Virus record (IMG/VR): IMGVR_UViG_3300031963_012969
Length of the DNA: 64,000 bases
Direction: 5' to 3' (one strand)
Origin: a virus
The notes beneath the pieces were generated by a model. It was not told the origin of the DNA and made no database searches. It worked only from the letters and a program-made list of their open reading frames with translations. Shown piece after piece: positions 14,662-55,184 of the stretch. The translations under genes and the position numbers were made by a program. Numbering within the stretch: the first letter of the stretch is position 1; every line of letters starts with the position of its first letter.

Positions 14662-14725
14662 ATATTTAATGTTGTTGTGTTTTATTAATTGGGTATATAT
14701 AAAAAATAATTTAATTCAAGTGTTT

Positions 14726-16582
14726 TTAATAACCAATTACATTCTTTGGCGGTTTACCAAATTCTTTGCCGTACGCTAATCCTGGTAACGGATTAGTACC
14801 ATGTATATTAGATGTTACGTCACCCTTTATGATATTTTTCTTTAAATTTTTTTGAACATAAGATGTTCCAAGTTGAGACATCCAATCTTTATCGTGAGAT
14901 GGATTCTCCATTAATCTAACCATATTTGGCTTAAAGCTTGGTTCGTGATCTGAAACCAAAACTTGTTTTTCCTCCATGTCATTCAATTCCTTCGCTACAC
15001 TTTTAGTGATCTTTGTTCCAATGCTATAATTTAGTACTGGTGCTTCTAGAAATTTTCCAATAGCTTTTTGTGGCTCCAAATTTAATGAATCTTGCCTAGG
15101 AACATAGCTTTTACTGAAAGAGCTATACTCTACAACCTCATCCGGTAAGTAATGACTAGATTCATCAGCATCAGTAACTGTAACGTGATCAACAACGGCT
15201 CTAGCTACTAACTCAGCATTTCTCCTGGATACATCTATACCATTATCTTTGAATGTATCCTGTATTTGCTTCAGTAAGCTTAATCTTCCAGCACCAATAC
15301 CCTTTAATCTTACTACGTCAGCTGGGTTCATCAATCCGCTTGACAGTCTGTCTCCTGGTTCTACCGTGTCTCCCCTTTTTACTAAAATTTGGTGATCTGG
15401 GGATACATAGTGTTCTTTTCCAGATACAATAATACTTGATCCGCCTTGAGGTAATTTATCTACTCTATCAACTACGCCATCCGTCTCAGAAATAGAAGCT
15501 TTGTCTGGAAAAGTTTCCGGTACCTGAAATAGTGCGTTTATTGCTTTAAAGCCAGTTACTTTTGCCACATTGGCTACGCCAGCTGAGTGCTTAGTGGAAA
15601 GAAGACTTTGGCTAAGTGGCTCCGTTAATGCACTTGCAGCAGAAAGACCAACGGCATCCGATAAACTTGGCAACGTCCCACGCTCTCTGATACCACAGCA
15701 CTTTGAGCATACACCGTTGTGCGCGTTGCACGTCATTGCAGACCTAACCAATATTTTGCTTTTTCCCTGTTTTTGTATATCTTTTATAATTTTGGGGGTA
15801 ATCAATGTGCCCGCAGGATATCCAGAAATGCCCTTAGCCAAAACAGATCCAGCATTGTCCTTGTCATCAATTGTAACTGGAATACCTGAAGAAGTTTTGC
15901 AGTCGTCTTCAGTGACCAATAAATCCATGGCAGCTGCATTTATCTGTTTCGCTAAAAACCCAGAATTTTGAGTGGAGAATTTTGTAGCTATCAATCCGGC
16001 TCTAGTTCCATAACTAGCAGCGAAGTATTCAGCTGGGGTCATCCCTTGCGTGTAGGAACTTTTTATTCCTATAGGGACTGGAGTATTTGTTTGGTCCATA
16101 ACCAAGAAGTCGGCACCTATATTACTATTTAATTGACTCTTGTTTCCTCTTGCTCCAGATGCAACCATTTTTGCCAAATTTGAACCCCTTTTAAGAGACG
16201 CGTCAAATATCATATCTGGCATTTTTGATGAATATTTGTTGTACAACTTAATTAACTTATTTTCCTTCTCTTCCTGTGTCAAAGTTTTGTCCGAAAAAAT
16301 ACTATTTTCTTCGGTCGTAACTTGGTCCATCAAACTTTTTTTATCTATAGGAGATTCAAGGTCTTTCATCGAGAAAGAGCTTCCAGTCTCCACCGCCCCT
16401 TTAGATCCTAGTCTAAGTAACTTAAAAGATATATCTCTATATTTTTCTGGTTCGTTTTCGGCTATTCTTTGTAGGACATCTTTAACCTCTTTGCTACCAA
16501 TAGGCCTATCGTCAGGAATATCATTTCTGAACCCTTCTGGGACAATAGAATTAAAAATAAGTCTAGCTACTGTAGTAGTCAT
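14726..16582 (-). CDS. DNA-directed RNA polymerase beta' subunit, C-terminal part (phage-encoded)
   Basis: SGARGN; bridge helix GLIATKFSTQNSGFLAKQI; Zn site DDC..RSAMTC...VCSKCCG; trigger loop EPLSQSLLSTKHSAG. Confidence 0.92.
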   Translation of the reverse strand: MTTTVARLIFNSIVPEGFRNDIPDDRPIGSKEVKDVLQRIAENEPEKYRDISFKLLRLGSKGAVETGSSFSMKDLESPIDKKSLMDQVTTEENSIFSDKTLTQEEKENKLIKLYNKYSSKMPDMIFDASLKRGSNLAKMVASGARGNKSQLNSNIGADFLVMDQTNTPVPIGIKSSYTQGMTPAEYFAASYGTRAGLIATKFSTQNSGFLAKQINAAAMDLLVTEDDCKTSSGIPVTIDDKDNAGSVLAKGISGYPAGTLITPKIIKDIQKQGKSKILVRSAMTCNAHNGVCSKCCGIRERGTLPSLSDAVGLSAASALTEPLSQSLLSTKHSAGVANVAKVTGFKAINALFQVPETFPDKASISETDGVVDRVDKLPQGGSSIIVSGKEHYVSPDHQILVKRGDTVEPGDRLSSGLMNPADVVRLKGIGAGRLSLLKQIQDTFKDNGIDVSRRNAELVARAVVDHVTVTDADESSHYLPDEVVEYSSFSKSYVPRQDSLNLEPQKAIGKFLEAPVLNYSIGTKITKSVAKELNDMEEKQVLVSDHEPSFKPNMVRLMENPSHDKDWMSQLGTSYVQKNLKKNIIKGDVTSNIHGTNPLPGLAYGKEFGKPPKNVIGY

Positions 16583-16592
16583 TTAAAGTAAA

Positions 16593-17897
16593 CTATACCC
16601 TATGGTAATATATACACTCAAGTCCCTTATTTTTGTCATACAAAAAAGCTTGAGCACACCTATTTGATGTAACATACCCAGAGTTGCTATGCCAAGCATC
16701 AGGTGCAGATAAACTTGGAATAACTCTTGCTATCACTCCACCCTCTTCAATTGAAGACTCTCTATGTAAATGGCCAAGATGCCACTCACAATAAACTGTT
16801 TTTCCCCACAGCTCTCTTTGTTCAACTTGAGCTATTCTAGTGAGTTGATTTAATTTTATTTTATCTCCGTGAGTGAAACACAAAAGCGTATTTCCAACTG
16901 CATGATATTTTCTAGATGTAGCTGCATTATCTATTGATATGGTTTTAGAACCCTTGAAAAATGCTCCAAGGAACTCACCTAAATAAAAAGTTCTCTCTAT
17001 GTCGTGGTTTCCTGGAACTATAATAACCTTTACTGGTGCAATTGAGTTGCATTGATTTATTGCCCATGTAGACAATTCACAACCTCTTCTAAAAGATTTT
17101 TGCCAACGACTATCTTCGTTCTGTGGAGTTCCATTACCTGTAGTATTTTCCTTGTTATTTACATTAAAGAAATCATTACCTATTGGTAGAATTATCTCCG
17201 ATATTTTTTCGCCTTTGACTTTATCTAAAAAATCCAGCAAAGCTGATCTAAATTTTTCTATAGCCTCTGCAGAATTATAATTACTGTGTCCTGTTTCTTC
17301 TTCCCAAGCAAGTTTCCCCAAGTGTAGATCTGGGATTGAAATTTCAAAAACCTTTCCACCAGAAACATTGTGCTTCTTTTGTGTAGTTAAAGAATTTTTT
17401 ATGCCAGATATACAGCTATTAAAAATATCCGAAATGTTTTCTCGAGTTAATTGATTTCTTTTGAGCTGTGCTTTTACTTGGTACAAGTTCTTAGTTACAA
17501 CGTCTCCGTCCTTTGATTTCATTCCAACTGGCCAAGTGTTAGCTGTCCACCTTTCGATTTGCCATTTTTTTAGGTCTATATTACAGGCGCTAATCAAGTC
17601 CTCCAATGTTTTAATATCTTCTGTTACCGACTCTGCCTCCATTTCGTTCTCGTCTCCAACGCATCTAGTTTTGCTTTGTTTTTGAGGTACATGTTGTAAT
17701 CCTTCCTTGGCGAACTCAAACGATTGTGAAAATTTTTCAAATAAATTAGATGAAGGTCTAAGTGCGTGTTCCACAGAGCTAAAACTACGCATTAATTTTT
17801 TTGCTATTTTGTCATACGTCAGACCATTGTTTTTGTAGTTGCAGGCTTTTTCAAACTCGTTTTTTGTCCAGGATGTGTTGTTTTTTTTGTTTATCAT
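16593..17897 (-). CDS. Calcineurin-like metallophosphoesterase with N-terminal HTH
   Basis: DLHLG, GND, PGNHD, THGD and GHLH motifs; N-terminal WT..E......GLTYDKIAKKLMRS. Confidence 0.85.
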   Translation of the reverse strand: MINKKNNTSWTKNEFEKACNYKNNGLTYDKIAKKLMRSFSSVEHALRPSSNLFEKFSQSFEFAKEGLQHVPQKQSKTRCVGDENEMEAESVTEDIKTLEDLISACNIDLKKWQIERWTANTWPVGMKSKDGDVVTKNLYQVKAQLKRNQLTRENISDIFNSCISGIKNSLTTQKKHNVSGGKVFEISIPDLHLGKLAWEEETGHSNYNSAEAIEKFRSALLDFLDKVKGEKISEIILPIGNDFFNVNNKENTTGNGTPQNEDSRWQKSFRRGCELSTWAINQCNSIAPVKVIIVPGNHDIERTFYLGEFLGAFFKGSKTISIDNAATSRKYHAVGNTLLCFTHGDKIKLNQLTRIAQVEQRELWGKTVYCEWHLGHLHRESSIEEGGVIARVIPSLSAPDAWHSNSGYVTSNRCAQAFLYDKNKGLECIYYHRV

Positions 17898-17898
17898 C

Positions 17899-18123
17899 TT
17901 ATTGTTCTTTTATTTTTATACCTAAATTTTTAGCCACTTGGTCAAAATCTTCCTGATCATCTCTTGATATAATCATTACTGGGCTTGGAGGCATTAACAA
18001 TACTAACGCAACAAGGGTATTTGTATTATCCCTTATCTCTATTGTTTTAACCTCTTTTGTATCTAGCAGTGGCTCTTCTAGGGGGTTATTTTTTGCAATA
18101 ACTCTCAAAGAATAATCTGGCAT
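17899..18123 (-). CDS. Hypothetical protein
   Basis: 74 aa ORF packed in the operon. Confidence 0.55.
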   Translation of the reverse strand: MPDYSLRVIAKNNPLEEPLLDTKEVKTIEIRDNTNTLVALVLLMPPSPVMIISRDDQEDFDQVAKNLGIKIKEQ

Positions 18124-18128
18124 GTTTT

Positions 18129-18587
18129 TTATTGTGCTGGTTGTACCTCAGTATTTGCTTGAGCCTGTTGATCGGCTGAAGCAGATTGCTGCTCTTGTTG
18201 AGCTGCTGCTTGCTGTGGATCTGCACCAGTTATTTGTGCCATCATTTGCTCTATTTGGTCAAGTCTTTCTTGAACACTTTTTTTCTTTTCCCCCTTACCA
18301 CCCATTTTCATTGCCTGTAATTCCATACCAATTTGTTGAACAATTTGCATTGTTTGCTGCTGCATTTGTGCTAACTGCTCTAGCCCTCCCTGTATTAATT
18401 GTGCAAGCTCTGGAAATCCTATCTGAGGCTGACCATCAGTTCCTGGAGCTGGTGGAGGTGGCTGAGGAATTGATCCTTCTTGTTGAGCCTGTGCTATTGC
18501 TTGTTGTGTTTGGGGAGAGGACACAAAAGCTTTTTTATCTATCTTGTTTAATATTTCGTTTAATAACTCTGTATTAAAATTTAACAT
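18129..18587 (-). CDS. Q/P-rich putative virion protein
   Basis: 152 aa; leader ends at DKKAF, followed by low-complexity Q-rich sequence. Confidence 0.55.
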   Translation of the reverse strand: MLNFNTELLNEILNKIDKKAFVSSPQTQQAIAQAQQEGSIPQPPPPAPGTDGQPQIGFPELAQLIQGGLEQLAQMQQQTMQIVQQIGMELQAMKMGGKGEKKKSVQERLDQIEQMMAQITGADPQQAAAQQEQQSASADQQAQANTEVQPAQ

Positions 18588-18598
18588 ATATTTATTCC

Positions 18599-19216
18599 TT
18601 ATCTAAAAAGTAACCTACAGGTCATAAATTCTCCTGGGGATGTGTCGGCTACAGAAATTACCTTCAATCTTATTTGATCCTGTGGGTAAAATTCTTTTTC
18701 TTTTGTAAAAATCTCGTAATAAAATAACTTACTATCTTCTATTATAGTTTCATTTATAGTTGAGTTTGTATTCTCCTCTTTTAGTTGTATTACAGTAGAG
18801 CCGCCAACTGGGCTCATAAAAAAACTTACCTGCATTCCGTAACAGATCAATGATTGTGTCCCAGGTATGTCAAAATAACCAAAAGTTTTCCCAGCAAATA
18901 AAGCTCCAGGAAAATAAAAATCTACAAATCCAGGGGCCGAAGCAGAACCAGATGTAGTTCCTGGACCGGCACTCAGTGTTACTAATGAATTTATTGGTCT
19001 CCATACCACATTTCCGTCTAAGTCTAGTGTCGGAACCCAACCCTCGGTAGCCAAAGAAGATGGCTGACTTATGAACTCTTTCCAAACCTTACCGCCATCT
19101 TTTGTGTATTGTATAGAAAGAGACCCAGAGGAGGGGTTCCTATAAAATCTAGTTTTTTGGCTATCGACCAATGGGTTTGGTATAAAATGTTGGTCCCCTA
19201 AAATTGGATCTGGCAT
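18599..19216 (-). CDS. Hypothetical protein
   Basis: 205 aa ORF with a beta-rich C-terminus. Confidence 0.55.
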   Translation of the reverse strand: MPDPILGDQHFIPNPLVDSQKTRFYRNPSSGSLSIQYTKDGGKVWKEFISQPSSLATEGWVPTLDLDGNVVWRPINSLVTLSAGPGTTSGSASAPGFVDFYFPGALFAGKTFGYFDIPGTQSLICYGMQVSFFMSPVGGSTVIQLKEENTNSTINETIIEDSKLFYYEIFTKEKEFYPQDQIRLKVISVADTSPGEFMTCRLLFR

Positions 19217-19219
19217 ACC

Positions 19220-19867
19220 TTAAATATTGAATAATTTTTTAATTAAACCCTTTGGTTTTTCTTCTTGTTTACTTAAATCCTCTGATTCTTCTTCTGGAAG
19301 ATCTATTACCCCCACATTCAAATCAGTGTCTTGATTTGGTCTCTTTCTAAGACTTGTGCTAACCCTAATAACTTTCCCTTCCCCTACCCTCTTGGCCGCT
19401 CTACTCATGTTTAATATCATGGGGATTAAAGCAGCAGTCCCAAGTACCCCAGCTCCACCAATAATTGTTTTTTCTGTGGGGGACAATTTATCTAGGAATG
19501 GTTTTCTTATATGTTCTTGTGTTTTTGCAATTTCATCTTGTGATTTTTGCAGTCCATGTAATGCAGGAATCGCTGCTAGAGCCACATCTTTTGTGGGTGC
19601 CAATAGAACAGTTCCAAGTCCTTTTGTTACATCACCTTTTCTAATTAGATTACCACCAAGGGCTCCCGTAAGTAGATTGACTACACCGAGCCCAATTCTG
19701 GATGGGGTTACATCGCTATAGTTGTCTTTATTCTGAAGGTAATCCAGTCCGCCAGCGGTTACACCACCTGTAATTAATGGGGTAAGCAAATTCTTAGCAA
19801 CAGATGCATTTTTACCAAATAACACTGAGGGCTTCGTATTCATTTTTATATTATGCACTAATTTCAA
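19220..19867 (-). CDS. Putative virion protein with glycine-zipper hydrophobic segments
   Basis: GKNAS leader end; LITGGVTAGG, GLGVVNLLTGALGG, IIGGAGVLGTAALIP; true start may be the second Met. Confidence 0.55.
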   Translation of the reverse strand: MKLVHNIKMNTKPSVLFGKNASVAKNLLTPLITGGVTAGGLDYLQNKDNYSDVTPSRIGLGVVNLLTGALGGNLIRKGDVTKGLGTVLLAPTKDVALAAIPALHGLQKSQDEIAKTQEHIRKPFLDKLSPTEKTIIGGAGVLGTAALIPMILNMSRAAKRVGEGKVIRVSTSLRKRPNQDTDLNVGVIDLPEEESEDLSKQEEKPKGLIKKLFNI

Positions 19868-22800
19868 CTGGTGTGTCGATTGATATTTCTCCCCTTCTGT
19901 ATGCAGATATTACTTCTGATGCGTCTTTGAATTTTACTGAAGGTTTATTTTTGTCTATATTCGTTGTGTTGTAAAGTCCTAAAACAAATTCCTGAGATGG
20001 GGTATAAAATATCTTATTATCTTTTATTGATAGTAAGTTTTTCGACGGCATTAATTTTTTATTAGCCTCTTGTATGGCGTCATCGGATACAGGTACATGT
20101 ACATTCATTTGATCTCCATCAAAATCTAAGTTAAATCCTTTGACTATTAATGGGCTAACCTGAATAGAATCTCCTGTAACGAGTCTTGGGGTAGCGGCCA
20201 TAATATTGAATCTATGTAGAGCTGGTGCTCTATTGTATAGAACTGGCCTTTCGGACATTTCATCAAGCAAGAATTTTTTAGCATAATCGCTTTTTCTTTC
20301 GACGTTTAATGCTGCTTGAGTAGATGGCATCCCATTCTTAACCATTCTTCTCATCACAAATGGAGCATATAATTTCCATGCCATTTTTTCTGGAATACCT
20401 ATGCTGTCCATATCTAGGTCGTCACTAGGAATTGTCACACCTCTACCGACTGTATTTACGGTGTGCCCAATTACCTTAGATAAAAACATTCCAGTCTTTG
20501 GGCCACCAGATCCTGCTAGTGATTTTATAAAACCTTTTACACCTTTTTGCTGTAATTTTGGGTGAAGTGGATCTCCAAGCCCCATCACAGCAGTTAATGC
20601 GTCATATACAGAAAGTTTTTCATCTCCAGCCTCTGATTCTCCAAACGCATCTTTAGATTCTCTATGAAGATCTCTAGCTGTCATTAAGTCTTTATATAAA
20701 TAATTTGCATCAGCACTTAACATCATTTTACCAGCCATCGATACAGGTCTATAGCTTGGGGGCAACACAGGAACTTTTTTCATAAAAAAGTCATCTTTAT
20801 CTAATCCCTGTTTTCTTATTCCAGATAAAATATTTAATTTTTTTACTGCATCATTCCTAGATGTTTTTGATCCATTTCTTATTGCGGATCTCAAGTCTTC
20901 TTCCATTCTATTGAAGTCTATAGATTGGTATGCATTAACTAATGCCTCGGGTCCAGTTCTTCCATCAATCATTTCTTTTCCAGATAGAACGTCCCTCATT
21001 TTGTTCTCAGTGAGCCCAAGTAATTTTCTTAGTGGTTCTTCTAATATTGGATTTGGAATTGGCTCGTCCAATGATATGAAGCTCCAGTTTTTACCGTCTA
21101 TGCCGTGCAACGATTGATCCATTAGACCACCTTTTACGGGCTCCCCAGTTCTAGGGTTTATTGTTTCAGCATTGCTAAGTTCTCTGTTTTCAACTAATGA
21201 ATCTATGTCCGCTTTTTTTAAAGCTTTTATTGTTATATTTGCTCCCCTTTTGTCTGGATTGATTCCAGCCGCTTTTAGTGTGTTGGTGAATTTTTCATAG
21301 ATAAAGGGGGTTTTTGGTGCTGGTAATGACATGCCCATTTTTATAGATCTCCACATATCCACGTTTGCACCCGTCCTATAATTCTGAATATCGAATAAAT
21401 TTTTAACAGCACCATGAGAAAGTAATGCCATTGTATCTAACATACCTATTCTTTTTGCACTTTCTGATCCACCTGGTTTACCTGGTTGTTCGTTTAGGTC
21501 TGGATTACCCTCATCTATCGCGCTAAGCTTTGCGTCTGCTGTATGCTCTAGCTTTAGAAAATTTTGTATACCAGTGAGAACTTTTGGTATTACTTTATTT
21601 GTTTCTGGGTCCAGTAAGTCTTCTGTATCTGATACCTGATTAAGCTCTAATTCATTTTTTACGAAGTCGTGAAACGAGTCAGAAGAAAAGGATGGAAGTG
21701 TATATCTTTTTCCAGTCTTTGTGGCGACTTTTCCTAACAAAGCTTCATATACCATGCCTGGGTTAACTCTTCCAATCATGGCAGCTGGATTGATCAATAT
21801 ATCCACTGTGTTTCCGTCTTTATCCTTAAACATCTTATCATCAGGAATTATTCGACCAATAACCCCCTTAGCAGCAAATCTAGATGATATTTTATCCCCA
21901 GGCTTTGCTGGAAAATTTGCTGATATGTTTACAGACAAACCTCTTCTTGTTTCTATGGCATCTATAACGTTACCATTTACGTTTTTTTCCCATGTTTGGC
22001 TTTTATCTATAAAAGATTTTTTGAGAATTTTATGTAGATTTCCCTTAGCTCTGTCTTCTGCCCTTAGAATCCTAGGAGCAACAGATAAAAATACTGGATC
22101 ACCAGGATTTATTTCTGCGCCTGGTTTAATCATTCCATTGTCGTCTATCTTGTTTAGCTGTTCCTTTGTGTATTTATTTGGGAACAATTGTATAAATTTA
22201 TTTTTATTGGAAACTACTCCGTCCTTATTCTCTACATCAAATCCATATAAATGCGATGACGTAAGTTTAGATGCAGCGCCTTCACTAATTGTAATAGAGT
22301 CCTCAAACGTACCGCCCTGTTTTCCTGGCATAAAAGCTACCCTAAGATTCTTGCCTATAGATAGTTCTCCATCTTTATTTACATAATTTGAATGAGCTAA
22401 TGCTTGTCCGGTTTTAACTTGATCGCCTGGCTTAACTAATGGAGTATCTGTAGTAAATGTCTTTCTGTTGTGTGGATAAAAATATCTTAACTCCATGTCC
22501 ACATCTTTTTTGTCTAACCCAGTTATTGTTATTCTATCGTTTGTTATTTTTTTAACTACCCCGTCAGTTGGGGACGCGACAACCCCTATTTTAGACCCTA
22601 TGGTCTTTTCTAGTGGTTGTTCATTGTCTTCGTCTAATGACATTACAAGAGGTGGCTCTGGTTGTGCCATCGGCAAAGCTTGAGTAAAATACTTGCCAGC
22701 CATAAATGCTCTAGCCCCCTTCATTGTACTAAACATTGGGGCTAGATTAATAGAGTCTGTATACACGTGCGAAGGGGACAATATTTTGTATTCCACTTCG

Positions 22801-22943
22801 TCTGGGGTAGCATAAGTTAACTTACCCTTTTTCATTGCTGGAACCGGGTAAGACGATTTTGATCCGTTAGGATCTATTACTTGTGGTAACGCATTCTTCT
22901 GGACAAAGTCTGGAAAAAGCTCTGAAAACAAATCTTTTTTCAT
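19851..22943 (-). CDS. RNA polymerase fusion subunit: beta C-terminal part + beta' N-terminal (catalytic) part
   Basis: beta motifs RAFMAGKYFTQA, TFEDSI, GDKISSRFAAKGVI, KLEH, RIGMLD..AL..HGA; beta' motifs ETINPRT, PVLPPSYRP, NRAPALHR and catalytic NLDFDGDQM. Confidence 0.95.
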   Translation of the reverse strand: MKKDLFSELFPDFVQKNALPQVIDPNGSKSSYPVPAMKKGKLTYATPDEVEYKILSPSHVYTDSINLAPMFSTMKGARAFMAGKYFTQALPMAQPEPPLVMSLDEDNEQPLEKTIGSKIGVVASPTDGVVKKITNDRITITGLDKKDVDMELRYFYPHNRKTFTTDTPLVKPGDQVKTGQALAHSNYVNKDGELSIGKNLRVAFMPGKQGGTFEDSITISEGAASKLTSSHLYGFDVENKDGVVSNKNKFIQLFPNKYTKEQLNKIDDNGMIKPGAEINPGDPVFLSVAPRILRAEDRAKGNLHKILKKSFIDKSQTWEKNVNGNVIDAIETRRGLSVNISANFPAKPGDKISSRFAAKGVIGRIIPDDKMFKDKDGNTVDILINPAAMIGRVNPGMVYEALLGKVATKTGKRYTLPSFSSDSFHDFVKNELELNQVSDTEDLLDPETNKVIPKVLTGIQNFLKLEHTADAKLSAIDEGNPDLNEQPGKPGGSESAKRIGMLDTMALLSHGAVKNLFDIQNYRTGANVDMWRSIKMGMSLPAPKTPFIYEKFTNTLKAAGINPDKRGANITIKALKKADIDSLVENRELSNAETINPRTGEPVKGGLMDQSLHGIDGKNWSFISLDEPIPNPILEEPLRKLLGLTENKMRDVLSGKEMIDGRTGPEALVNAYQSIDFNRMEEDLRSAIRNGSKTSRNDAVKKLNILSGIRKQGLDKDDFFMKKVPVLPPSYRPVSMAGKMMLSADANYLYKDLMTARDLHRESKDAFGESEAGDEKLSVYDALTAVMGLGDPLHPKLQQKGVKGFIKSLAGSGGPKTGMFLSKVIGHTVNTVGRGVTIPSDDLDMDSIGIPEKMAWKLYAPFVMRRMVKNGMPSTQAALNVERKSDYAKKFLLDEMSERPVLYNRAPALHRFNIMAATPRLVTGDSIQVSPLIVKGFNLDFDGDQMNVHVPVSDDAIQEANKKLMPSKNLLSIKDNKIFYTPSQEFVLGLYNTTNIDKNKPSVKFKDASEVISAYRRGEISIDTPVEISA

Positions 22944-22946
22944 GTA

Positions 22947-23552
22947 TTAATAAATTAAATATCTACGTATAAACATATTCAAAGAGTTCAAACATCTTTC
23001 AGATCTATATATTAAATAACTTATAGATTTCCAGAAATGTTTCCAGCCAGCTTTATTTAGCAACTTCCTAAATCTATTTATTAGTTTTTTATCCTTTTCC
23101 TTTTGTTCATGTATTAGTCTTTCAAAGCTAATTGAATGTTTTTCGGTTGTTTTTACCTCAACTAATAAAATCTTATCTAATTTCCCGTAAATAAAGTATG
23201 CATCAAAATCCATCCAGGTTTCCTCTGTGTCGGATGAGTCTATGCTACTATAAAATGTTATTTTGCCGTGATAGTCTATTTTCTTTGTATATCTATCTTT
23301 CTCTATTACTTCTTTCCAGATATTCCACGGTCTAACGTCTTTACTTTTTCTCTCTTCTTCAGAGAATGGTATGTATTCTCTTTCTACTATCTCTTCTACT
23401 AGATCTCCAGTTTCTGTTATGAAGTATTGACTTAAACAATTATCTAAGTCTTTTGTTTGAAAATTTATTTCACTCCAATTAATTGAATGTTTCTTTAATT
23501 CGTCATTAAGTGGTAATTCTACACTGACTTTAATTTCATCGAACATCCCCAT
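22947..23552 (-). CDS. Conserved phage hypothetical protein
   Basis: MGMFDEI...FQTKDLDNCLSQY.I...G pattern, which I recognise from phage hypotheticals. Confidence 0.6.
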   Translation of the reverse strand: MGMFDEIKVSVELPLNDELKKHSINWSEINFQTKDLDNCLSQYFITETGDLVEEIVEREYIPFSEEERKSKDVRPWNIWKEVIEKDRYTKKIDYHGKITFYSSIDSSDTEETWMDFDAYFIYGKLDKILLVEVKTTEKHSISFERLIHEQKEKDKKLINRFRKLLNKAGWKHFWKSISYLIYRSERCLNSLNMFIRRYLIY

Positions 23553-23557
23553 ATGTA

Positions 23558-24556
23558 TTAAGTTATATTTGCTGTGTTTATTGAATTATTGGAAACATTC
23601 TTAAATGCATCTGGATTCCTAATTATAGCGTCTATTATTGTTTTTTTAGGAACTTTGTTTCTTAGAGAATTTAAGTATGGATCTGGATTTTGCTGAGCTT
23701 TTCTTGCTACAGTTCTCGCAAGGAACCCAGGAACGCCTGGTATTTTCCAGTCGTGTTTTATAGCGTTATTAAAGAATTGGTCAACGTTTAAATTTTTAGA
23801 CAAAATTCTTTTGTATAATCCCTCTGGTGTTTCATTTGGAATACTGGTCTGAAGTTGCGGCAATTGAGCGTTAGACTTTTTCTGGAACGGTTGTCCAACT
23901 GGCTGAAATTGATTTGCCTGTTGAGGCATTTGTTTCATGGGAACAGACACATTAGATGGAATACCTGGTCCAGTGGATGTAGCGCTAGATGTATAAGTTG
24001 GTGTATAATTTTGATTTATCTGTCCAGGATTACGCGCAGCCTCGTCCATGGAGTTTTGAACATTAAGTTTACCTAGCTCGCCTAACATTTGTCCTGTACC
24101 TGCTATAGTTTTAATAGGGTTAGCAAATCCATGCCAAGCTCTACCCATGACACCTTTATCTGCAACCTGTTGAGTTTCTGCTAAATTTTTTGCGGGATCC
24201 ATTGCGACATCTACCCCTTGCAACGCCATATTTCCGGCCCATGCCCATGGTGCCGCTTTAGAAGCAAATCCCAATGCTTTCCCAGCCACTCCAGCTGCGT
24301 TAGATGATTGAGCCATCGCTCCAATTGCGTTATTCATTCTAGGAGCAACCTTTGACAAGTGATGACGTCCTTCGTGCAACAAACTGCTGGCTCCTGTACC
24401 GCCTTCGGCAATACTAACTGCTTGATGTAGTCCATGCCCGTGTCCAGTGTTTGCTACGGCAAGACCGTCACTTACAGCAGAAATTGGCTGACTAATTAAT
24501 CTTGGAATGCTGCCAAATCCAGCCTTTTTACTTAACAAAGATAATATTTTTTTCAT
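23558..24556 (-). CDS. Putative virion cargo protein, Ala/Gly-rich amphipathic
   Basis: 332 aa; leader MKKILSLLSKKAG. Confidence 0.55.
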   Translation of the reverse strand: MKKILSLLSKKAGFGSIPRLISQPISAVSDGLAVANTGHGHGLHQAVSIAEGGTGASSLLHEGRHHLSKVAPRMNNAIGAMAQSSNAAGVAGKALGFASKAAPWAWAGNMALQGVDVAMDPAKNLAETQQVADKGVMGRAWHGFANPIKTIAGTGQMLGELGKLNVQNSMDEAARNPGQINQNYTPTYTSSATSTGPGIPSNVSVPMKQMPQQANQFQPVGQPFQKKSNAQLPQLQTSIPNETPEGLYKRILSKNLNVDQFFNNAIKHDWKIPGVPGFLARTVARKAQQNPDPYLNSLRNKVPKKTIIDAIIRNPDAFKNVSNNSINTANIT

Positions 24557-24568
24557 ACAATAATGTCA

Positions 24569-25501
24569 TTAACTGCATCTGCATCTCCACTTCCTTAGAG
24601 CTTTGTTTATTCTACTATCTGGATCATTTTTTGTTTCAGCCCCAGTTCTTCTTTTTTTCATCCCACACATTCTGGAGCAGAAACTGTTTTGTCTGCTTTC
24701 TCTTTTACCTTTTGGATTTTTTTCAGTAACTGGAGCTTTTAGGTTGCCGCCAGTTTGTTTATTGTAACTTGCTCTACCTTTTGCATTTAATCCGCCCTCC
24801 GAGTTTTTCCCTTCAGATCTTTGCCACGCCGGAGACTTTGCCATCTTATCTGGCAAAAAAGTTACAGCTTGTTCAGCCGATTTCGTCAATCTATTCCACT
24901 GCTTTTTGTCTGGATAATCTTTATCCCCAGGTTTAGCTGGTTTTTCGCCCCTTTGTCTTTTTGCTCTTATGTTTGCCCAAAGGCCAGGTTTTTCATCTTT
25001 TGCTAACTTGGGAAGAAAACTAACTTTATTCATATTTTTATTATATTTCTTGGTTTTATATTCGTCCATAAGAACTTTTAATGCTTCTGGGTCTTTTACT
25101 AATTTAGTTGGGTCAATGGCCCAATTCCTCAGTGCATACGCTCTTCTTGGGGTTGGATTAGACTGAAACATTTTACCGCCGTGCCTAGCCTTAAAAGCAA
25201 TCCACCTTTTAATTTGCCTTTTGTCGTCTTCCATTCTTCTGCCCTCGGAGTATCTTTTGTACCACTGCAGCCACCCATGAGGATCAGCTGGATGGTACCA
25301 GTGTTGTGGCCACTCAGGTAAACTCGCTAGTCTTGGTGCATCCTGGGGGCCGTATACCTCTCCGTATACCCCTATTTCCTTAAGTTGATCTGGAGTAAAA
25401 TCTGGCAAAAAACTGGTTTCTACGTCTTGCTGCTTTTCTTTATTGTCTTCTGGATTGCTCATTAAACAGATTAAATTAACACATTTAATGTATATATACA
25501 A
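24569..25501 (-). CDS. Multi-module basic protein (polyprotein-like; C-terminal DUF6321-like module)
   Basis: Modules DPHGWLQWY.RY..GRR..D.RQI.RW / GLWANIRAKR.RGEKPAKPGDKDYP / AWQR.EGKN..GGLN.KGR..SFC.RM..SRINKALRKW.C; true start probably MSNPED. Confidence 0.65.
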   Translation of the reverse strand: MYIYIKCVNLICLMSNPEDNKEKQQDVETSFLPDFTPDQLKEIGVYGEVYGPQDAPRLASLPEWPQHWYHPADPHGWLQWYKRYSEGRRMEDDKRQIKRWIAFKARHGGKMFQSNPTPRRAYALRNWAIDPTKLVKDPEALKVLMDEYKTKKYNKNMNKVSFLPKLAKDEKPGLWANIRAKRQRGEKPAKPGDKDYPDKKQWNRLTKSAEQAVTFLPDKMAKSPAWQRSEGKNSEGGLNAKGRASYNKQTGGNLKAPVTEKNPKGKRESRQNSFCSRMCGMKKRRTGAETKNDPDSRINKALRKWRCRCS

Positions 25502-25519
25502 ATAAGATATCTGTCATCT

Positions 25520-25562
25520 AAAAAAAAGGTGGAAGGAGCTTTCGCCCCTTCCACACTTTTTT
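25520..25562. terminator. Intrinsic terminator ending the small-gene cassette
   Basis: A-tract, gtggaagg / ccttccac stem, T-tract. Confidence 0.7.
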
Positions 25563-25719
25563 AGCTCAACTGTTTTATTCCCAGTATTGTAATTGGGAAT
25601 TTTTTGTTGAGCTGTTTCCAGGCCTGGGCAACATGCCCACGGCTTTCTCCATACCTAACTGCCTTAAGTAGTTTAATGGGGTTAGGCTGTTGTCTATATG
25701 ATATTTCAAATAGCTTCAT
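25561..25719 (-). CDS. Small basic hypothetical protein (52 aa, not in the ORF track)
   Basis: Manual translation MKLFEISYRQQPNPIKLLKAVRYGESRGHVAQAWKQLNKKFPITILGIKQLS; fills the gap up to the terminator. Confidence 0.5.
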   Translation of the reverse strand: MKLFEISYRQQPNPIKLLKAVRYGESRGHVAQAWKQLNKKFPITILGIKQLS

Positions 25720-26146
25720 CTTTTTCATATAGTATTGTGCAAGTTGACCATACTACAGACGCCAAAAATACATTAACAATCAAATAGATGGATAATGTAA
25801 TTGGTGACAGTAGTGCGATTACTGCTCCCCAAAGGGCCACTGCGGGTACCTCTGTGTAGCAGATTTCGTCTGCTATCTTTCGGCACATCCACCCTGGGAC
25901 ATTGTATTTGTCTAGTCTTTTGCCTAGAAAAATAACAATTGCTATTAATGGGGTAAAAACCCCAACTAGTATTGAGGGTACAAAACCAATCTTCAGTAAA
26001 TCTACTGCAGATTGCCATGTGTCGTTAATGGCAGTGTATCTCATTATAATACCAGATATAATACTTATTATAAGTACATAAGGAAAATACAATGCTAACT
26101 TTTTTGCTATTTTCATGTTTTTATTTTGTAGCCGTATTCTGCGCAT
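25706..26146 (-). CDS. Membrane protein (3-4 TM)
   Basis: Several hydrophobic stretches; true start probably MKIAKK. Confidence 0.55.
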   Translation of the reverse strand: MRRIRLQNKNMKIAKKLALYFPYVLIISIISGIIMRYTAINDTWQSAVDLLKIGFVPSILVGVFTPLIAIVIFLGKRLDKYNVPGWMCRKIADEICYTEVPAVALWGAVIALLSPITLSIYLIVNVFLASVVWSTCTILYEKDEAI

Positions 26147-26319
26147 AGATCCGCAAACGCAGATACGCAGTACCCAGCAATAAAGTCACTTGCGTGACTT
26201 TCTTCCCAGTGAGGATGTCTCTCAAGCAAAATGGTTTTAAAGTTTTGGATGTTTTCACATCCAAAATCATTTGCCAGCTCTTGCTCTATTACATTATATG
26301 TTTTTTGAATACTACTCAT
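26113..26319 (-). CDS. Hypothetical protein
   Basis: 68 aa, coupled to neighbouring genes by ATGA-type overlaps. Confidence 0.5.
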   Translation of the reverse strand: MSSIQKTYNVIEQELANDFGCENIQNFKTILLERHPHWEESHASDFIAGYCVSAFADLCAEYGYKIKT

Positions 26320-26477
26320 TTTGTGTAATATCTATACATGTTACCCTGTCTACTGATTTGCTGTAGCCATGTCTCCGACCCGAAAGTATAAACGGGTCTC
26401 GGATCTGGATTCCTGAATGGAAATAATTTTTCCATTCCTCTTGTCACGGCAAACACTAATATGTTTTTGATCTTCAT
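26316..26477 (-). CDS. Small hypothetical protein (53 aa, not in the ORF track)
   Basis: MKIKNILVFAVTRGMEKLFPFRNPDPRPVYTFGSETWLQQISRQGNMYRYYTK; ATGA overlaps at both ends. Confidence 0.55.
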   Translation of the reverse strand: MKIKNILVFAVTRGMEKLFPFRNPDPRPVYTFGSETWLQQISRQGNMYRYYTK

Positions 26478-26824
26478 AATGAGACAATGTATGTTTTAAC
26501 TTTATTGTATGTATCTATGCACTTATCCTTGATGTGACTTACAATACCGCTATCATCTTTTTGAAGGCGGATTGTCTGTATTGCCAATTTTTCATTAGCA
26601 GTTAGATTGTTTAGATCCAACTTATTGAACTCCTCACTGGAGCCCTGTGAAGCTACGGTGAGCGCGACTTTAAAGTCGCCGCTAACCGTGTTGTCTTTGA
26701 TTTGATTGTTTACGCTGTAAATGTACAGCACTGCACTGAACAATAGGCAGAGTACTGCGCTATTGACTAGGATTACGTTGCTCATCATTTTAGCTATTTT
26801 TATTACTGGTTTCATGGTGTTCAT
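26474..26824 (-). CDS. Membrane-anchored hypothetical protein
   Basis: 116 aa with one N-terminal TM; first gene after promoter motif copy 2. Confidence 0.55.
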   Translation of the reverse strand: MNTMKPVIKIAKMMSNVILVNSAVLCLLFSAVLYIYSVNNQIKDNTVSGDFKVALTVASQGSSEEFNKLDLNNLTANEKLAIQTIRLQKDDSGIVSHIKDKCIDTYNKVKTYIVSL

Positions 26825-26967
26825 GTTGTTTGGTTTTGTTGTTGGTTGTTATATAAAAAAAATCGAGTTTTGCCACTGGCCGATTTTTTAGAGCCAGCTA
26901 TTATTTTTAGGACACTTTTAAATCTTTTTTAGGGATCCGATAGGGTGTATCCTAGAATATTTCCTAT

Positions 26968-27006
26968 CAATATATTATGGCTAAAAACACCTGTTTTTTG
27001 GTACCC
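26968..27006 (-). promoter_or_regulatory. Putative phage-specific promoter, copy 2
   Basis: Minus strand GGGTACC-N18-GCCATAATATATTG. Confidence 0.6.
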
Positions 27007-27009
27007 CTA

Positions 27010-27037
27010 TTGACTTTTTCGATATAACTGATATGGT
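27010..27037 (+). promoter_or_regulatory. Possible sigma70-like promoter for tRNA-Gln and the glycosyltransferase
   Basis: TTGACT-N16-TATGGT, 17 nt upstream of the tRNA. Confidence 0.35.
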
Positions 27038-27054
27038 TTTCTAATTACCACCAG

Positions 27055-27127
27055 TGCCCTCTGGGGGAATGGTAGACCCAACCGGCTTTGAACCGGTCTT
27101 TTCTAGGTTCGAGTCCTAGGGGGGCAG
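27055..27127 (+). tRNA. tRNA-Gln (UUG)
   Basis: Acceptor TGCCCTC/GGGGGCA; anticodon arm ACCGG-CTTTGAA-CCGGT; T-arm CTAGG-TTCGAGT-CCTAG; CCA not encoded. Confidence 0.9.
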
Positions 27128-27143
27128 CATACAAAAACAAAAC

Positions 27144-28154
27144 ATGAAAAAAGTATTATTTTGGCCATATAAATATAATAATATGGGAGCAGATTGGTCT
27201 ATTCCAGTATTGCACTTAATTAATTGCTTTAAATCTCACAATTTTCAAGTGTTAAGACATCCTAACTTTAAATTTACTAATGACATAGATACAGAAATTT
27301 ATGACTTCAATAAACACAGGGATGATATAGATATTTGTATATACAATCATACAGATATATCTTTAATAATTGGAAACGTAATAAAATGCCGCAAAAATTT
27401 ATTTTTTAAGCCCACAGTCCCTGAGCGCGGCTATACAACATTAGATGAATTAGGGTATGGGCCGTATTCCTCAATTACATACGAAAAACCAAAATTTGAT
27501 ATTTATTCAACGGAAGAAATAAATAATTTTTACGAAACTGAAGTTAAAAACTGGATAGACATGAGGTCCAATAAATGGTTTAAAGATTTTAATCCTGTAG
27601 AAAAAACAATAGAAGAAGATGATTACTATTTAATAGTAGGACAATGTTATGGGGATGAAGTCATAAAAAGACATGAATTTGGATCATACAAAGAAAAAGT
27701 AGAACAAATCATAAAAGAAATAAGTAGAATAGATACAACCAGAAAAATTATTGTTAAACTTCATCCATACGTCAATGGGGCAAAAGAACCAATGGTGGGT
27801 GGATTTGGCGAGCAAATAAAAAGTGAAATAGAAAAAATTTCAAGCTCTGTAGTTGTATATACAGGCAATTTAAGTATTCATGATTTTTTACCTAAAGCTC
27901 GTTGTGTATTTATTGCTAATTCTGGGGCTGGGATAGAAGCGATGATGCATAACAAGCCAATAGTTTCTTGGGGAAACCCAGAATATCACTGGGCAACATA
28001 TAGACTTATTCACCTAGCAGACATAATAAGAGCTATTCGAGTAGAGGACTGGTTCGATAAATTTAAGCAACAACAATTTTTGTATTGGTATACAAAACAC
28101 TACTGCTTCTATAATTATGAAAGTTGTTATAGAAGAGTAGGAGAAGTTATTTAA
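27144..28154 (+). CDS. Capsule-synthesis (KpsS/KpsC-like) GT-B glycosyltransferase
   Basis: GQ..GD, IVKLHP, NSGAGIEAMMHNKPIVSWG motifs; the only convincing plus-strand CDS. Confidence 0.7.
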   Translation: MKKVLFWPYKYNNMGADWSIPVLHLINCFKSHNFQVLRHPNFKFTNDIDTEIYDFNKHRDDIDICIYNHTDISLIIGNVIKCRKNLFFKPTVPERGYTTLDELGYGPYSSITYEKPKFDIYSTEEINNFYETEVKNWIDMRSNKWFKDFNPVEKTIEEDDYYLIVGQCYGDEVIKRHEFGSYKEKVEQIIKEISRIDTTRKIIVKLHPYVNGAKEPMVGGFGEQIKSEIEKISSSVVVYTGNLSIHDFLPKARCVFIANSGAGIEAMMHNKPIVSWGNPEYHWATYRLIHLADIIRAIRVEDWFDKFKQQQFLYWYTKHYCFYNYESCYRRVGEVI

Positions 28155-29592
28155 ATTTTAGGTATTGAGTTGCTCCAGGAGTCAAACCAGAAACAGAGTC
28201 TAATGGAGCCTGGGTTAGTATCTTTCTAGATTCGGGGAATGCAACAACCGATTGGCTCATCTTAATTGCATTAATATATTCGTTTTTACCAGTTTTAACA
28301 TTCTGTACCGGAAAATATATATTCCCATCGCTACCTTTTTTAGCAACCATTGAAAATCTCTGGTCTACTCCAATGTTTTTAGATTCAGAGCTTCTTATTG
28401 GGTCTATAACCATAACCTGGCTGGGAGAAACATTTCTGCTTGAGACAGGTATTGCGTCAGAAGACGTAATAGCTCCCTCCCCTGTCTGCACAACCCTTTT
28501 TTGGTAGTCGTATATCTCAATGGGATTTATCCCAGCTATATGATTGCTCAAGCTATTCCCCACAATAAGTCCCTCTAGTTGCGGAGAAAAATATCCAGCA
28601 CGCAATCCCTTAAGAGTTCTGTTATATGTGGACCTATACAATAATGTAGATGCCAGCTTACCAGTATCTTTAGATACCCTCTCGGAAAATAGATCTTCTG
28701 GACCAACAAAATTTTTGTTAGCCATGCTATCTCTGTCATCCTCGTCTTCTAGCCCCTTTTGTATATTAAGTAGTTTTTGACTAGCTCTAAGCATCATCAT
28801 TGGAGATAGATTTTTATCGCTAGTACCAAGCGTTCTTTGTCCTACCTCTGGATCTATCTCTGATTTATTTAATTCTGAAATTAGGTCTTTTAATTTTGTT
28901 TTATCGTCTGCATCTGGATTAGCTTTTCTGCCTAGTAATTTGTCGTAAAACTTATAGAAAGACCTATCATCATCTTGCCCCTTATTAACATCCAGGATTT
29001 CAGGACCCCAAAATTTCATTATCTGATCATCATCTACTCCCATTCCCTTTAAGACTGGATATAGCTTGATTCTGCTTTTTCCTATCATAACTCTATACAC
29101 ACCCGTTTCTGGTTCCATAAATATTCTCATTCCAGATCCAGTTCCGGCTACAGTATTTACGTGACTCTCTAGCTCCCCGTTGTCTTTTCTCCTAGCGTAC
29201 ACTCCAGGCTTAAGTCTTTGCTGGCCAGCAACCAAACTATATTCACTACCTCCATTTATAAAAGTACCCCTATGAGTCATCCACGGGACTCTCGCAAGCA
29301 CACCATCAAATTGGTCTAATACTTCATTATTTTTTTTATCTATCAGTGATACCTTTCCGTAAAGAGGAACAGATAGTTTATCCCCCATCAATAACGCCCT
29401 TTTTTCGTCTGAAAGAGAAAAAGGTTTTTTTAAATCATATCTAATGTCAGAAGCCTCTATTCTTACTTTATCATTTTCTAGCGGAAATCTGTTTTGATAA
29501 GCAGATAAAACTCTATCCAAAATGTCTTGTCTGAGAGACGATGGATTATCGAATCCCCTAAGTTTTACTCCTTTGGGTTCTTGTATTACCAT
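28147..29592 (-). CDS. DNA-directed RNA polymerase beta subunit, N-terminal part
   Basis: VPWMTHRGTFINGGSEY...Q.R.KPGVY; DDRDSMANK; INPIE....KR; RNVSPSQ...IDPIRSSESKNIGV (equivalent to CPIETPEGPNIGL). Confidence 0.9.
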   Translation of the reverse strand: MVIQEPKGVKLRGFDNPSSLRQDILDRVLSAYQNRFPLENDKVRIEASDIRYDLKKPFSLSDEKRALLMGDKLSVPLYGKVSLIDKKNNEVLDQFDGVLARVPWMTHRGTFINGGSEYSLVAGQQRLKPGVYARRKDNGELESHVNTVAGTGSGMRIFMEPETGVYRVMIGKSRIKLYPVLKGMGVDDDQIMKFWGPEILDVNKGQDDDRSFYKFYDKLLGRKANPDADDKTKLKDLISELNKSEIDPEVGQRTLGTSDKNLSPMMMLRASQKLLNIQKGLEDEDDRDSMANKNFVGPEDLFSERVSKDTGKLASTLLYRSTYNRTLKGLRAGYFSPQLEGLIVGNSLSNHIAGINPIEIYDYQKRVVQTGEGAITSSDAIPVSSRNVSPSQVMVIDPIRSSESKNIGVDQRFSMVAKKGSDGNIYFPVQNVKTGKNEYINAIKMSQSVVAFPESRKILTQAPLDSVSGLTPGATQYLKFK

Positions 29593-29604
29593 TTATAATT
29601 AAGA

Positions 29605-51602: not shown

Positions 51603-55184
<3,582 letters not shown>

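Follow-up and report, generated by a model that had tools for sequence, protein, structure and literature searches.

Three phage genes in line with one bacterial-type RNA polymerase core, with a beta-beta' fusion and a second cut in beta

The rpoB-rpoC fusions of Helicobacter and Wolbachia are natural beta-beta' fusions, and the split subunit B of archaea (B''/B') is a natural mid-cut of the second-largest subunit. All of these are full-size cellular enzymes with alpha (or D-L) and omega (or K). We know of no case in which a fusion is combined with cuts on both sides, leaving one chain that bears both catalytic barrels.

Several RNA polymerases (RNAPs) made of more than one subunit are encoded by phages. 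The RNAP of Salmonella phage Arash consists of gp206 (1525 aa) and gp216 (606 aa), with the sigma factors gp10 and gp196 (OQ632216; PMC10585845). In the Arash paper gp206 was labelled simply as beta and its fusion was not described (PMC10585845). The multi-subunit RNAP-encoding Caudovirales (mReC; Weinheimer & Aylward 2020, PMC7481178) have separate full-length genes for beta (~900-1520 aa) and beta' (~900-1390 aa), and no fusion or split in these phages is mentioned in that paper (PMC7481178). The phiKZ/AR9 enzymes are multisubunit, lack alpha and omega and have both beta and beta' divided into pieces; one set is packed in the virion (PMC7598289, PMC7824862).

The window analyzed here is the whole stretch of 64,000 nucleotides from the IMG/VR virus record IMGVR_UViG_3300031963_012969. 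The preliminary description of this DNA had proposed a phage RNAP in three collinear pieces parted by unrelated genes, aligning readily with bacterial RpoB/RpoC and compact in total (about 2130 aa). Three intact minus-strand ORFs (481 + 1030 + 618 aa) were found exactly where it had placed them (Table 1), adding up to 2129 aa, and ORFs, Pfam domains, PDB matches and motifs all agreed with the proposal. The genes parting the pieces do not belong to RNAP; they encode an exonuclease, a DUF6321 protein, a capsule-synthesis-like protein, tRNA-Gln and proteins of unknown function.

Table 1. Positions of the RNAP genes and neighbouring features in the window
Feature	Position	Strand	Remarks
beta'-C chain	14726..16582	-	618 aa; begins MTTTVARL (= TTVGR)
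Block between middle chain and beta'-C	16593..19867	-	
Metallophosphoesterase / DNA-repair exonuclease	16593-17897	-	in middle/beta'-C block
Further genes in middle/beta'-C block	19220-19867, 18599-19216, 18129-18587, ~17899-18147	-	
Middle chain beta-C::beta'-N	19851..22943	-	1030 aa; both catalytic barrels in one polypeptide
Block splitting beta	22944..28146	mixed	5.2 kb
Minus-strand genes in block splitting beta	22947-23552, 23558-24556, 25706-26146, 26474-26824	-	
DUF6321 gene	24569-25501	-	in block splitting beta
Strong intrinsic terminator	25529-25554	-	in block splitting beta
tRNA-Gln	27055-27128	+	in block splitting beta
Capsule-synthesis-like gene	27144-28154	+	in block splitting beta
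beta-N chain	28147..29592	-	481 aa; protrusion/lobe/fork part of beta, to E. coli beta ~622
Portal-protein homologue	33783..35516	-	tblastn, 21-32% identity to Arash gp204 and to genes at the same position in relatives

The beta-N chain matched Rpb2 domain 2 (Rpb2_2) in Pfam, and in a PDB sequence search its residues 271-452 matched E. coli beta 429-618. Its last residues form a tail specific to the clade, with GATQYLKFK as the C-terminal motif, and the tail is kept in the relatives L005 and L016. The middle chain begins with a clade-specific leader of ~35 aa (MKKDLFSELFP...), followed by beta-C with its barrel and then by beta'-N with clamp helices, lid, rudder and the NLDFDGD barrel. Its Pfam matches were Rpb2 domain 6 (Rpb2_6, residues 126-482, E 1e-39) and Rpb1 domains 1, 2 and 3 (residues 691-1024; domain 2, E 6e-24). 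The beta'-C chain matched Rpb1 domains 4 and 5 (Rpb1_4/Rpb1_5, E 6.5e-26) and in the alignment displayed the F-loop, a bridge helix, the second Zn site, a trigger loop with its His and a lineage-specific C-terminus. Only bacterial beta and beta' were matched in the PDB search, the best E-values being 1.7e-15 for beta-N and 1e-54 (Thermus beta') for the middle chain.

The catalytic motifs NLDFDGDQMNVHV, beta FED, GDK..KGV and the beta His were all kept in the alignment; NLDFDGDQMNVHV, FED and GDKISSRFAAKGV aligned to E. coli beta' 458-464 and beta 813-814, 1065 and 1073. The bridge helix, the trigger-loop His, the four Cys of the second Zn site and the clamp helices were likewise kept in the alignment blocks. 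All three genes were under strong purifying selection (dN/dS 0.03-0.07), with values of 0.034 for beta-N (L005 versus L016), 0.04 for the middle chain and 0.036 for beta'-C (both versus L004). On sequence grounds, the reading of the three genes as one complete, phage-encoded RNA polymerase core of bacterial type holds.

The beta-beta' junction (...AAGINP/DKRGANITIK) joins the equivalent of E. coli beta 1334-1339 to that of approximately beta' residue 23, where the first conserved beta' block begins. Beta' breaks off after ...PVEISA and resumes with MTTTVARLIFN; the break immediately precedes the TTVGR equivalent. As in the rpoC1/rpoC2 genes of cyanobacteria and plastids, beta' is cut after the catalytic barrel. 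However, the cut in the window is ~50-65 residues earlier (at approximately cyanobacterial gamma residue 560/625, corresponding to E. coli beta' ~565), and the alignment thus confirmed a break just ahead of a TTxGR-like motif, near but not at the rpoC1/C2 split, as had been described.

The lineage to which this enzyme belongs includes the cultured Arash and Vibrio phages D69, D148 and D181 and is otherwise mostly uncultured. It comprises more than 150 clusters (at 50% identity) with E < 1e-210. Its RNAPs occur as one chain (~2080 aa), two chains (~1500 + 610 aa) or three chains, with totals of ~2075-2136 aa. The beta-beta' junction and a 32-residue zinc-ribbon deletion were common to the window, Arash, D69 and the records L005, L006, L008, L014 and L015. 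The phage lineage lacks both the N-terminal beta' zinc ribbon and the inserts specific to lineages of cellular enzymes, and beta' is cut just ahead of TTVGR in most of its members.

Phylogenetic analysis (LG+G4, short search, archaeal outgroup left out, phage branches long) placed 29 bacteria from 11 phyla and the phage lineage on separate sides, with SH-aLRT 100 each. The best bacterial matches were 28-35% identical and were spread over many phyla. The three-chain sequences, from the window and four metagenomic relatives (47-96% identity), formed one clade (SH-aLRT 100) nested among two-chain sequences, with one-chain sequences as sister. On our trees, therefore, the three-chain form appears to be a single derived fission within the two-chain lineage. 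A phage rather than cellular origin and a little-studied lineage had both been proposed; the enzyme fell outside the bacteria sampled, and the family is large yet barely described in print. The layout had also been called unusual: the three-chain form is real, but it is a derived offshoot within a large family, some of whose members are in culture (Arash, D69/D181). The three-chain layout itself is a modest addition to a known family of fused phage RNAPs.

The window shares with Arash, D69, D148 and D181 the seamless junction, the zinc-ribbon loss, the beta' cut before TTVGR, a total of ~2130 aa, a place close to the portal gene within the head module and the lack of an alpha gene. In those four phages, however, beta is whole and joined to beta'-N, giving two chains instead of three, and identity to the window is 30-34%. 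The mReC enzymes are likewise phage-encoded, compact and bacterial-like, with beta and beta' branching away from all cellular clades. Cobetia phage Carin-5 and the Rhizobium Kleczkowskaviridae seem to belong here. Carin-5, in which a sigma gene adjoins the beta and beta' genes, was outside the lineage of the window in the tree, on a long branch. The RNAP of the window was rejected as mReC, as separate beta and beta' genes of at least 800 aa were absent from the window. The phiKZ/AR9 enzymes differ in consisting of four or five separate chains, with beta and beta' unfused (PMC7598289, PMC7824862). A sigma homologue is missing from them (gp68/gp226 take its place), each genome encodes two enzyme sets, and the sequences are far more diverged, whereas the window lineage has one set and a sigma-like factor and aligns easily to bacteria. 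The fusion, the single set per genome and the sigma-like factor in the lineage rule out assignment to this type.

The cut in beta falls in a surface loop (E. coli beta ~622-636), where a variable gene block of 3.4-5.9 kb is inserted. The three-chain layout is also present in L004, L005, L016 and L007 with differing spacer content; of the block in the window, only the two genes adjoining beta-C are shared with L005 and L016, and the remainder is variable. It could be argued that the beta halves are rejoined through a giant intron, trans-splicing or a split intein, so that the real product would be a two-chain enzyme. Indeed, Vibrio phage D181 has a spliced group I intron with a homing endonuclease in the same gene, ~40 aa downstream of the break in the window, and many LAGLIDADG inteins occur in the polymerase genes of relatives. 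However, an Rfam search of the window detected no group I intron, while the same search recovered that of D181, and a terminator, a tRNA and an opposite-strand gene sit in the gap. Among the contigs of two DNA runs and two RNA libraries, none joined the halves across the block. Contigs from independent studies, of DNA as well as of RNA libraries, bridged the gene ends and never skipped the block, the RNA-library contigs not being proof of transcription. At ~25 and ~35 aa, the tails on the new ends fall short of intein length, and residues of the intein blocks are missing from them (neither a Cys/Ser start nor HN ahead of the extein). The new termini are conserved among relatives and have ordinary stop and start codons. 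A group I/II intron or an intein at the break was rejected on the lack of an Rfam intron, of intein features and of joining contigs, and rejoining by any route is very improbable. Beta is genuinely split into two genes at this break, which is neither an intron or intein nor an error of assembly.

Splitting of a normally single gene can also signal decay, and the three genes might be what is left of a polymerase in decay, or else an artefact of cellular origin or of assembly. Against decay, the reading frames are intact, each catalytic motif is retained and dN/dS does not exceed 0.07; the layout is moreover maintained from 47% to 96% identity. Against an artefact, at least 10 studies yielded the layout in freshwater metagenomes, with contigs spanning the gene ends, and the neighbours are phage structural genes. 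Decay or artefact is thus scarcely credible.

The block between the middle chain and beta'-C also varies. L004 retains the first four genes of this block, L005 and L016 retain two or three of these, and the exonuclease recurs in L004 alone. Two-chain relatives have different genes, or none, between beta-beta'-N and beta'-C. The RNAP genes are located within the virion/head module, as in Arash, and the surrounding genes are of phage type, including tail fibres and the portal homologue, which matched Arash gp204 and the genes at the same position in D69, D181, L006, L008, L013 and L015 (tblastn).

No alpha, omega or sigma was detected in the window by Pfam analysis of 33 of its ORFs, as described before. 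Beyond the window, alpha and omega (PF01193, PF01000, PF01192) were not found in five lineage records, four of them complete, while 14/14 controls were recovered; each genome record had one RNAP set. This fits the earlier suggestion of a compact, possibly alpha-independent RNAP. The phage chains could instead be only the catalytic part of an enzyme assembling on a host alpha dimer (and omega), since the enzyme, at 28-35% identity to cellular beta/beta', is plainly of bacterial type and cellular enzymes of this type need alpha to assemble (PMC7598289); the Arash proteome listing covers phage proteins only (PMC10585845). However, host alpha would itself need packing if the enzyme enters the capsid before infection, and the phiKZ/AR9 enzymes are a precedent for activity without alpha (PMC7598289). 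The beta-beta' link, being universal in the lineage, would fit a replaced assembly platform. Dependence on host alpha is therefore unlikely.

The preliminary description had recognised no sigma gene. In the window this stands, as phmmer with lineage sigma proteins against all ORFs of at least 60 aa found none, but a twin contig 96% identical to the window encodes a sigma-like protein of 237 aa from the Arash gp10 family (E 1.9e-41). This gene, known from the twin and not from the window, lies ~20 kb past the window edge. The protein reached Sigma70_r3 above the Pfam cut-off, and relatives also reached r4. In a complex model, it paired with beta'-N at ipSAE 0.75, compared with 0.00 for the best control; the ipSAE mark was reached by 58/80 solved complexes and 2/110 mismatched pairs. 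The model runs shared at least 59% of contacts, partner pLDDT was at least 73 and the interface was on the clamp helices. The model resembles solved sigma-core complexes, a textbook-like pair, and so shows likeness rather than binding. In the model, the gp10-family protein thus resembles a sigma factor docking on the beta' clamp helices.

We consider it likely that the three genes form one working, phage-owned RNAP core of the Arash lineage without alpha or omega genes, in which beta is split in addition to the lineage's own cut and the halves assemble non-covalently. In this freshwater clade beta would have been cut a second time in a variable surface loop, the gap being filled by a changeable gene block, and the halves would be transcribed and translated separately before assembling. 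The covalent tie between the two barrel-bearing halves may stand in, at least partly, for the alpha dimer in assembly. Promoters would be read with a gp10-family sigma-like factor bound to the beta' clamp helices.

Within the lineage, presence of the enzyme in virions is known for Arash alone, from mass spectrometry: gp206 gave more spectra than any other protein of the particles, and gp216 and the sigma factor gp10 were detected as well (PMC10585845), though the authors note that the virion enzymes could be preparation carry-over (PMC10585845). By analogy with this one distant relative (~30-33% identity), the enzyme may be packed in the capsid and start early transcription without the host polymerase. 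As the only phage RNAP in the genome, it probably also serves later transcription.

A more tentative reading, which we hold to be possible but rather doubtful, is that the barrel tie has replaced the alpha platform as the only obligatory covalent link. The 1030-aa chain would then be the assembly hub, with the lobe half of beta and the jaw/trigger half of beta' docking on it in trans, perhaps aided by the conserved end peptides GATQYLKF (C-end of beta-N) and MKKDLFSELFP (N-end of the middle chain). If so, the enzyme and its small sigma would together make up the smallest RNA polymerase of cellular type that is both self-contained and sigma-dependent.

Bacterial RNAP is thought to require the alpha dimer for uniting beta and beta'. 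Here is a large natural family in which sigma-type initiation appears to be kept, an alpha gene is lacking and beta is tied to beta' instead. A minimal cellular-type transcription machine and its assembly thus become directly testable, with Arash (Salmonella) and the D69 group (Vibrio) as cultured members. Together, the forms with one, two and three chains make up a natural series of cuts tolerated by the fold, and in the three-chain layout the barrel-to-barrel link is the only conserved link. The tolerated cut sites could be exploited to engineer split polymerases and to build orthogonal sigma-dependent expression systems. The family points to capsid-borne, host-polymerase-independent early transcription in widespread phages of freshwater, marine, gut and soil environments.

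All three RNA polymerase (RNAP) genes were found in the window ORF table at exactly the positions claimed in the preliminary description, and together they encode 2129 aa. Their Pfam domains and PDB sequence matches identified them as beta-N, beta-C::beta'-N and beta'-C. Bacterial beta/beta' chains were the only matches in the PDB sequence search, in which the middle chain matched Thermus beta' with an E of 1e-54 and the best E for beta-N was 1.7e-15.

Location of the RNAP genes and of other features in the window and in related DNA records (L-handles)
Feature	Record	Position	Strand	Length	Remarks
beta-N	window	28147-29592	minus	481 aa	Pfam Rpb2 domain 2
beta-C::beta'-N	window	19851-22943	minus	1030 aa	Pfam Rpb2 domain 6 (residues 126-482, E 1e-39), then Rpb1 domains 1-3 (residues 691-1024)
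beta'-C	window	14726-16582	minus	618 aa	Pfam Rpb1 domains 4-5
Regions 5' of RNAP genes	window	16583-16652, 22944-23013, 29593-29662			no Shine-Dalgarno
TTTTTTATATA, then ~25 nt to start codon	window	14662-14706, 26825-26860	minus		before two small genes
415-nt skip in DUF6321 gene	window	24585-25001			beta spacer
2OG-Fe(II) oxygenase gene	window	14071-14661			downstream of beta'-C
Gene of same Pfam family	L005	6601-7179			within beta spacer
GC island	window	51603-58467			52-60% GC
Large ORF	window	43877-51598		2573 aa	kinase-like PHROG match, residues 1663-1742
beta-C::beta'-N	L134	10001-15457			39% identity
beta-N with insert	L007	4101-6515			in-frame insert in lobe region
InPase insert	L007	5031-5825			Pfam InPase PF18823, E 3e-50
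RNAP genes crowded with mobile elements	L009	6488-14032
	L011	6080-14386
	L012	8516-14314
	L013	8345-15937
	L003	5604-6515
Second group I intron	L003	1807-2014			adjoins portal-like gene

Among GenBank phages, tblastn matched Salmonella phage Arash and Vibrio phages D69, D148 and D181 at about 30-34% identity; the next matches were bacterial contaminant records (27-30%). Megablast of 16 kb of window DNA against GenBank phages gave no match. In Arash and D69, a single gene (gp206, 1525 aa) encodes the whole beta together with beta'-N, and a separate second gene (gp216, 606 aa) encodes beta'-C. In IMG/VR, a three-gene layout like that of the window was found in L004 (96% identity), L005 (75%), L016 (74%) and L007 (47%). 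L009, L010, L011, L012, L014 and L015 displayed the two-gene layout as far as their contigs extend, while in L006, L008 and L013 the RNAP occupies one open frame of ~2080 aa, which an intein lengthens in L013. Total RNAP length was near-constant across these layouts (2075-2136 aa). P0064, which resembled a further three-chain case, is actually a two-chain gene interrupted by the contig end. An exhaustive phmmer search returned over 150 clusters (50% identity) at E < 1e-210, therefore the family is large. The middle gene of the window was present in freshwater metagenomes from at least ten studies and also in RNA libraries.

The concatenated window chains were aligned with eight relatives and with Salmonella RpoB and RpoC (E. 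coli numbering). The beta break falls in a loop at beta ~622-636, where the linker of the fused relatives is short and variable. At the beta-beta' junction, the beta C-terminal end (...AAGINP) directly continues into beta' at about residue 23, the start of the first conserved block, and about 25 residues are missing around this junction. The beta' zinc ribbon (C70-C88) is deleted and SI2 is absent. The beta motifs FED (beta 813-814), GDK..KGV (K1065, K1073) and the His near 1237 are kept, as are the beta' clamp helices, NLDFDGDQMNVHV, the bridge helix, the trigger loop and its His residue, and all four Cys that form the second Zn site. The beta' break (...PVEISA / MTTTVARL) lies immediately before TTVGR at beta' ~565. 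The alignment thus bears out the earlier placement of this break just before a TTxGR-like motif, near but not at the cyanobacterial split; cyanobacterial gamma ends about 50-65 residues further on.

Beta in the window has been split by gene fission, and the pieces are under purifying selection. The three-gene layout was repeated in four independent contigs, whose spacers vary in content and length (~3.4-5.9 kb). The window, L005 and L016 share both the C-terminal end of beta-N, GATQYL(K/N)(F/I), and the N-terminal end of the middle chain, MKKD(L/I)FSE(L/M)FP. An Rfam search of the window detected no intron, while the same search detected the group I intron in the orthologous gene of Vibrio phage D181, at a site ~40 residues downstream of where beta is broken in the window. 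The beta gap contains a strong terminator, a tRNA-Gln and an opposite-strand gene. In two DNA runs and two RNA libraries, which come from different studies, contigs span both gene ends and none of them skips the spacer block; the RNA-library contigs are no measure of transcription, its starts or its levels. For beta-N, dN/dS was 0.034 (L005 versus L016); comparison of the window with L004 gave a middle-gene value of 0.04 and a beta'-C value of 0.036. Decay, splicing and misassembly are excluded by this recurrent layout, the conserved ends, the lack of an intron, the gap content, the bridging contigs and the dN/dS values. A split intein and a giant intron were also rejected as the source of the beta break, and no homing endonucleases were found in the spacers of the window, L005 and L007. 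The three-chain RNAP of the window is genuine and maintained by selection, and it represents a version of the Arash-type fused phage enzyme.

The DUF6321 gene displayed its 415-nt skip in all four runs, in DNA and RNA libraries alike; this reflects length variation of a modular protein within the population and not splicing. The 2OG-Fe(II) oxygenase gene would relocate around the RNAP pieces if the genes of this Pfam family in the window and L005 were one and the same.

A tree of beta plus beta' (39 rows, 2224 columns, LG+G4, short search) placed 29 bacteria from 11 phyla and nine lineage members on separate sides of a branch, with an SH-aLRT of 100 for each. The phylogeny proposed as a check in the preliminary description puts the concatenated RNAP outside these 29 bacteria. 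The best cellular matches among 185,579 species genomes had 28-35% identity and were scattered across many phyla. A second tree, of the lineage with bacteria as the root (LG+G4, short search), grouped all five three-chain rows in a single clade (100) lying within the two-chain rows, and the three one-chain rows in a sister clade (99). On these trees, which have long branches and an outgroup without archaea, the simplest history is a beta-beta' fusion, followed by a cut in beta' and, in the clade of the window, a cut in beta. The related record L134 encodes a beta-C::beta'-N protein which begins at the same beta loop as that of the window and has a C-terminal extension of 814 aa, which does not correspond to beta'-C. 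Neither beta-N nor beta'-C was found in the 10 kb upstream or in the ~5.5 kb downstream, where the contig ends. The layout of L134 indicates either an older or recurrent beta cut, or a wide scattering of the pieces.

Searches for alpha (PF01193, PF01000) and omega (PF01192) were positive in 14 of 14 control genomes and found neither in the 99-kb twin contig L050, two complete metagenomic genomes, Arash and D69. Each of these five lineage records contains a single beta' barrel, and thus one RNAP set per genome. The preliminary description had recognised no sigma gene, and a phmmer search of all window ORFs with Arash gp196, the sigma of D69 and proteins of the gp10 family agreed with this; however, the 96%-identical twin encodes a gp10-family sigma-like protein. 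Sigma70_r2 is clearly recognisable in Arash gp196 and in the D69 homologue. The second, more diverged sigma-like family, which includes Arash gp10, was found by profile and is conserved in 41%-identity relatives and in L050 (237 aa, E 1.9e-41), where its gene lies about 20 kb beyond the start of the window in contig coordinates. Members of this family exceed the Pfam cut-offs for Sigma70 regions 3 and 4. The Sigma70_r2 profile had no match in the records of five relatives at E 0.01, as this conserved family is too diverged in region 2.

A complex model of the twin's sigma-like protein with the beta'-N part of the same contig reached an ipSAE of 0.75, whereas the best of three controls scored 0.00; the ipSAE mark was passed by 58 of 80 solved complexes and two of 110 mismatched pairs. 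Contact agreement between runs was at least 59%, partner pLDDT was at least 73, and the modelled interface consisted of the clamp helices and the N-terminal helices of the sigma-like protein. Since sigma-core complexes have already been solved, the model shows a predicted likeness to them and not binding. Sigma70-type promoter sites were fewer in the window than in shuffles (44 versus 58 +/- 7). The TTTTTTATATA 11-mer, with at most one mismatch, was enriched (22 versus 8.7 expected) and is a possible candidate for a phage promoter. The missing Shine-Dalgarno 5' of the ATG in the RNAP genes, the 36% GC and the freshwater origin hint at a Bacteroidota-like host. K-x-A was not enriched in the RNAP chains; one such site, at residues 16-18 of the middle-chain leader, is kept in L005 and L016.

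Mobile elements are abundant in the RNAP genes of relatives. LAGLIDADG inteins number three or four per single gene, several of them at the GDK active-site motif, and the D181 RNAP gene carries its group I intron together with a homing endonuclease. In L007, an inorganic pyrophosphatase domain is inserted in beta-N, which makes this an RNAP subunit with a built-in enzyme for RNAP's own by-product. A pyrophosphatase, gp23, is also among the Arash virion proteins.

The window RNAP genes sit in the virion module with a portal homologue upstream, and elsewhere in the window there are collagen-like tail fibres and a weak match to a head protease. Within the GC island, which stands out from the 36% GC of the window, lie a gene for a collagen-like (Gly-X-Y) tail fibre (PHROG tail fibre, E 1e-161) and, adjoining it, a 1080-aa ORF without a family match. 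In purified Arash particles, gp206 had the most spectra of all proteins, and gp216 and the sigma gp10 were also found (PMC10585845). From the virion proteins of this distant relative and the gene position in the virion module, we infer that a capsid-borne RNAP would start transcription without host polymerase. It is probably active later in infection too, because it is the only phage RNAP in the genome.

The Arash paper annotated beta, beta' and sigma and did not describe the fusion (PMC10585845), and jumbo-phage reviews cover only phiKZ/AR9-type enzymes (PMC7598289). Phages with a deeply branching RNAP were named mReC (multi-subunit RNAP-encoding Caudovirales) by Weinheimer and Aylward (2020; PMC7481178). 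In contrast to the present lineage, their table gives beta and beta' as separate genes of at least 800 aa each; their text does not mention fusion or split in those phages, and their supplement lists no metagenome ids of the window's relatives. Cobetia phage Carin-5 (sigma, beta' of 1083 aa, beta of 927 aa) and the Rhizobium Kleczkowskaviridae look mReC-type. A literature search for a beta-beta' fused-and-split phage RNAP found no paper describing such a layout. The main interest lies less in the extra cut of the window than in the family, an alpha-less, sigma-paired RNAP in which beta is tied to beta'.
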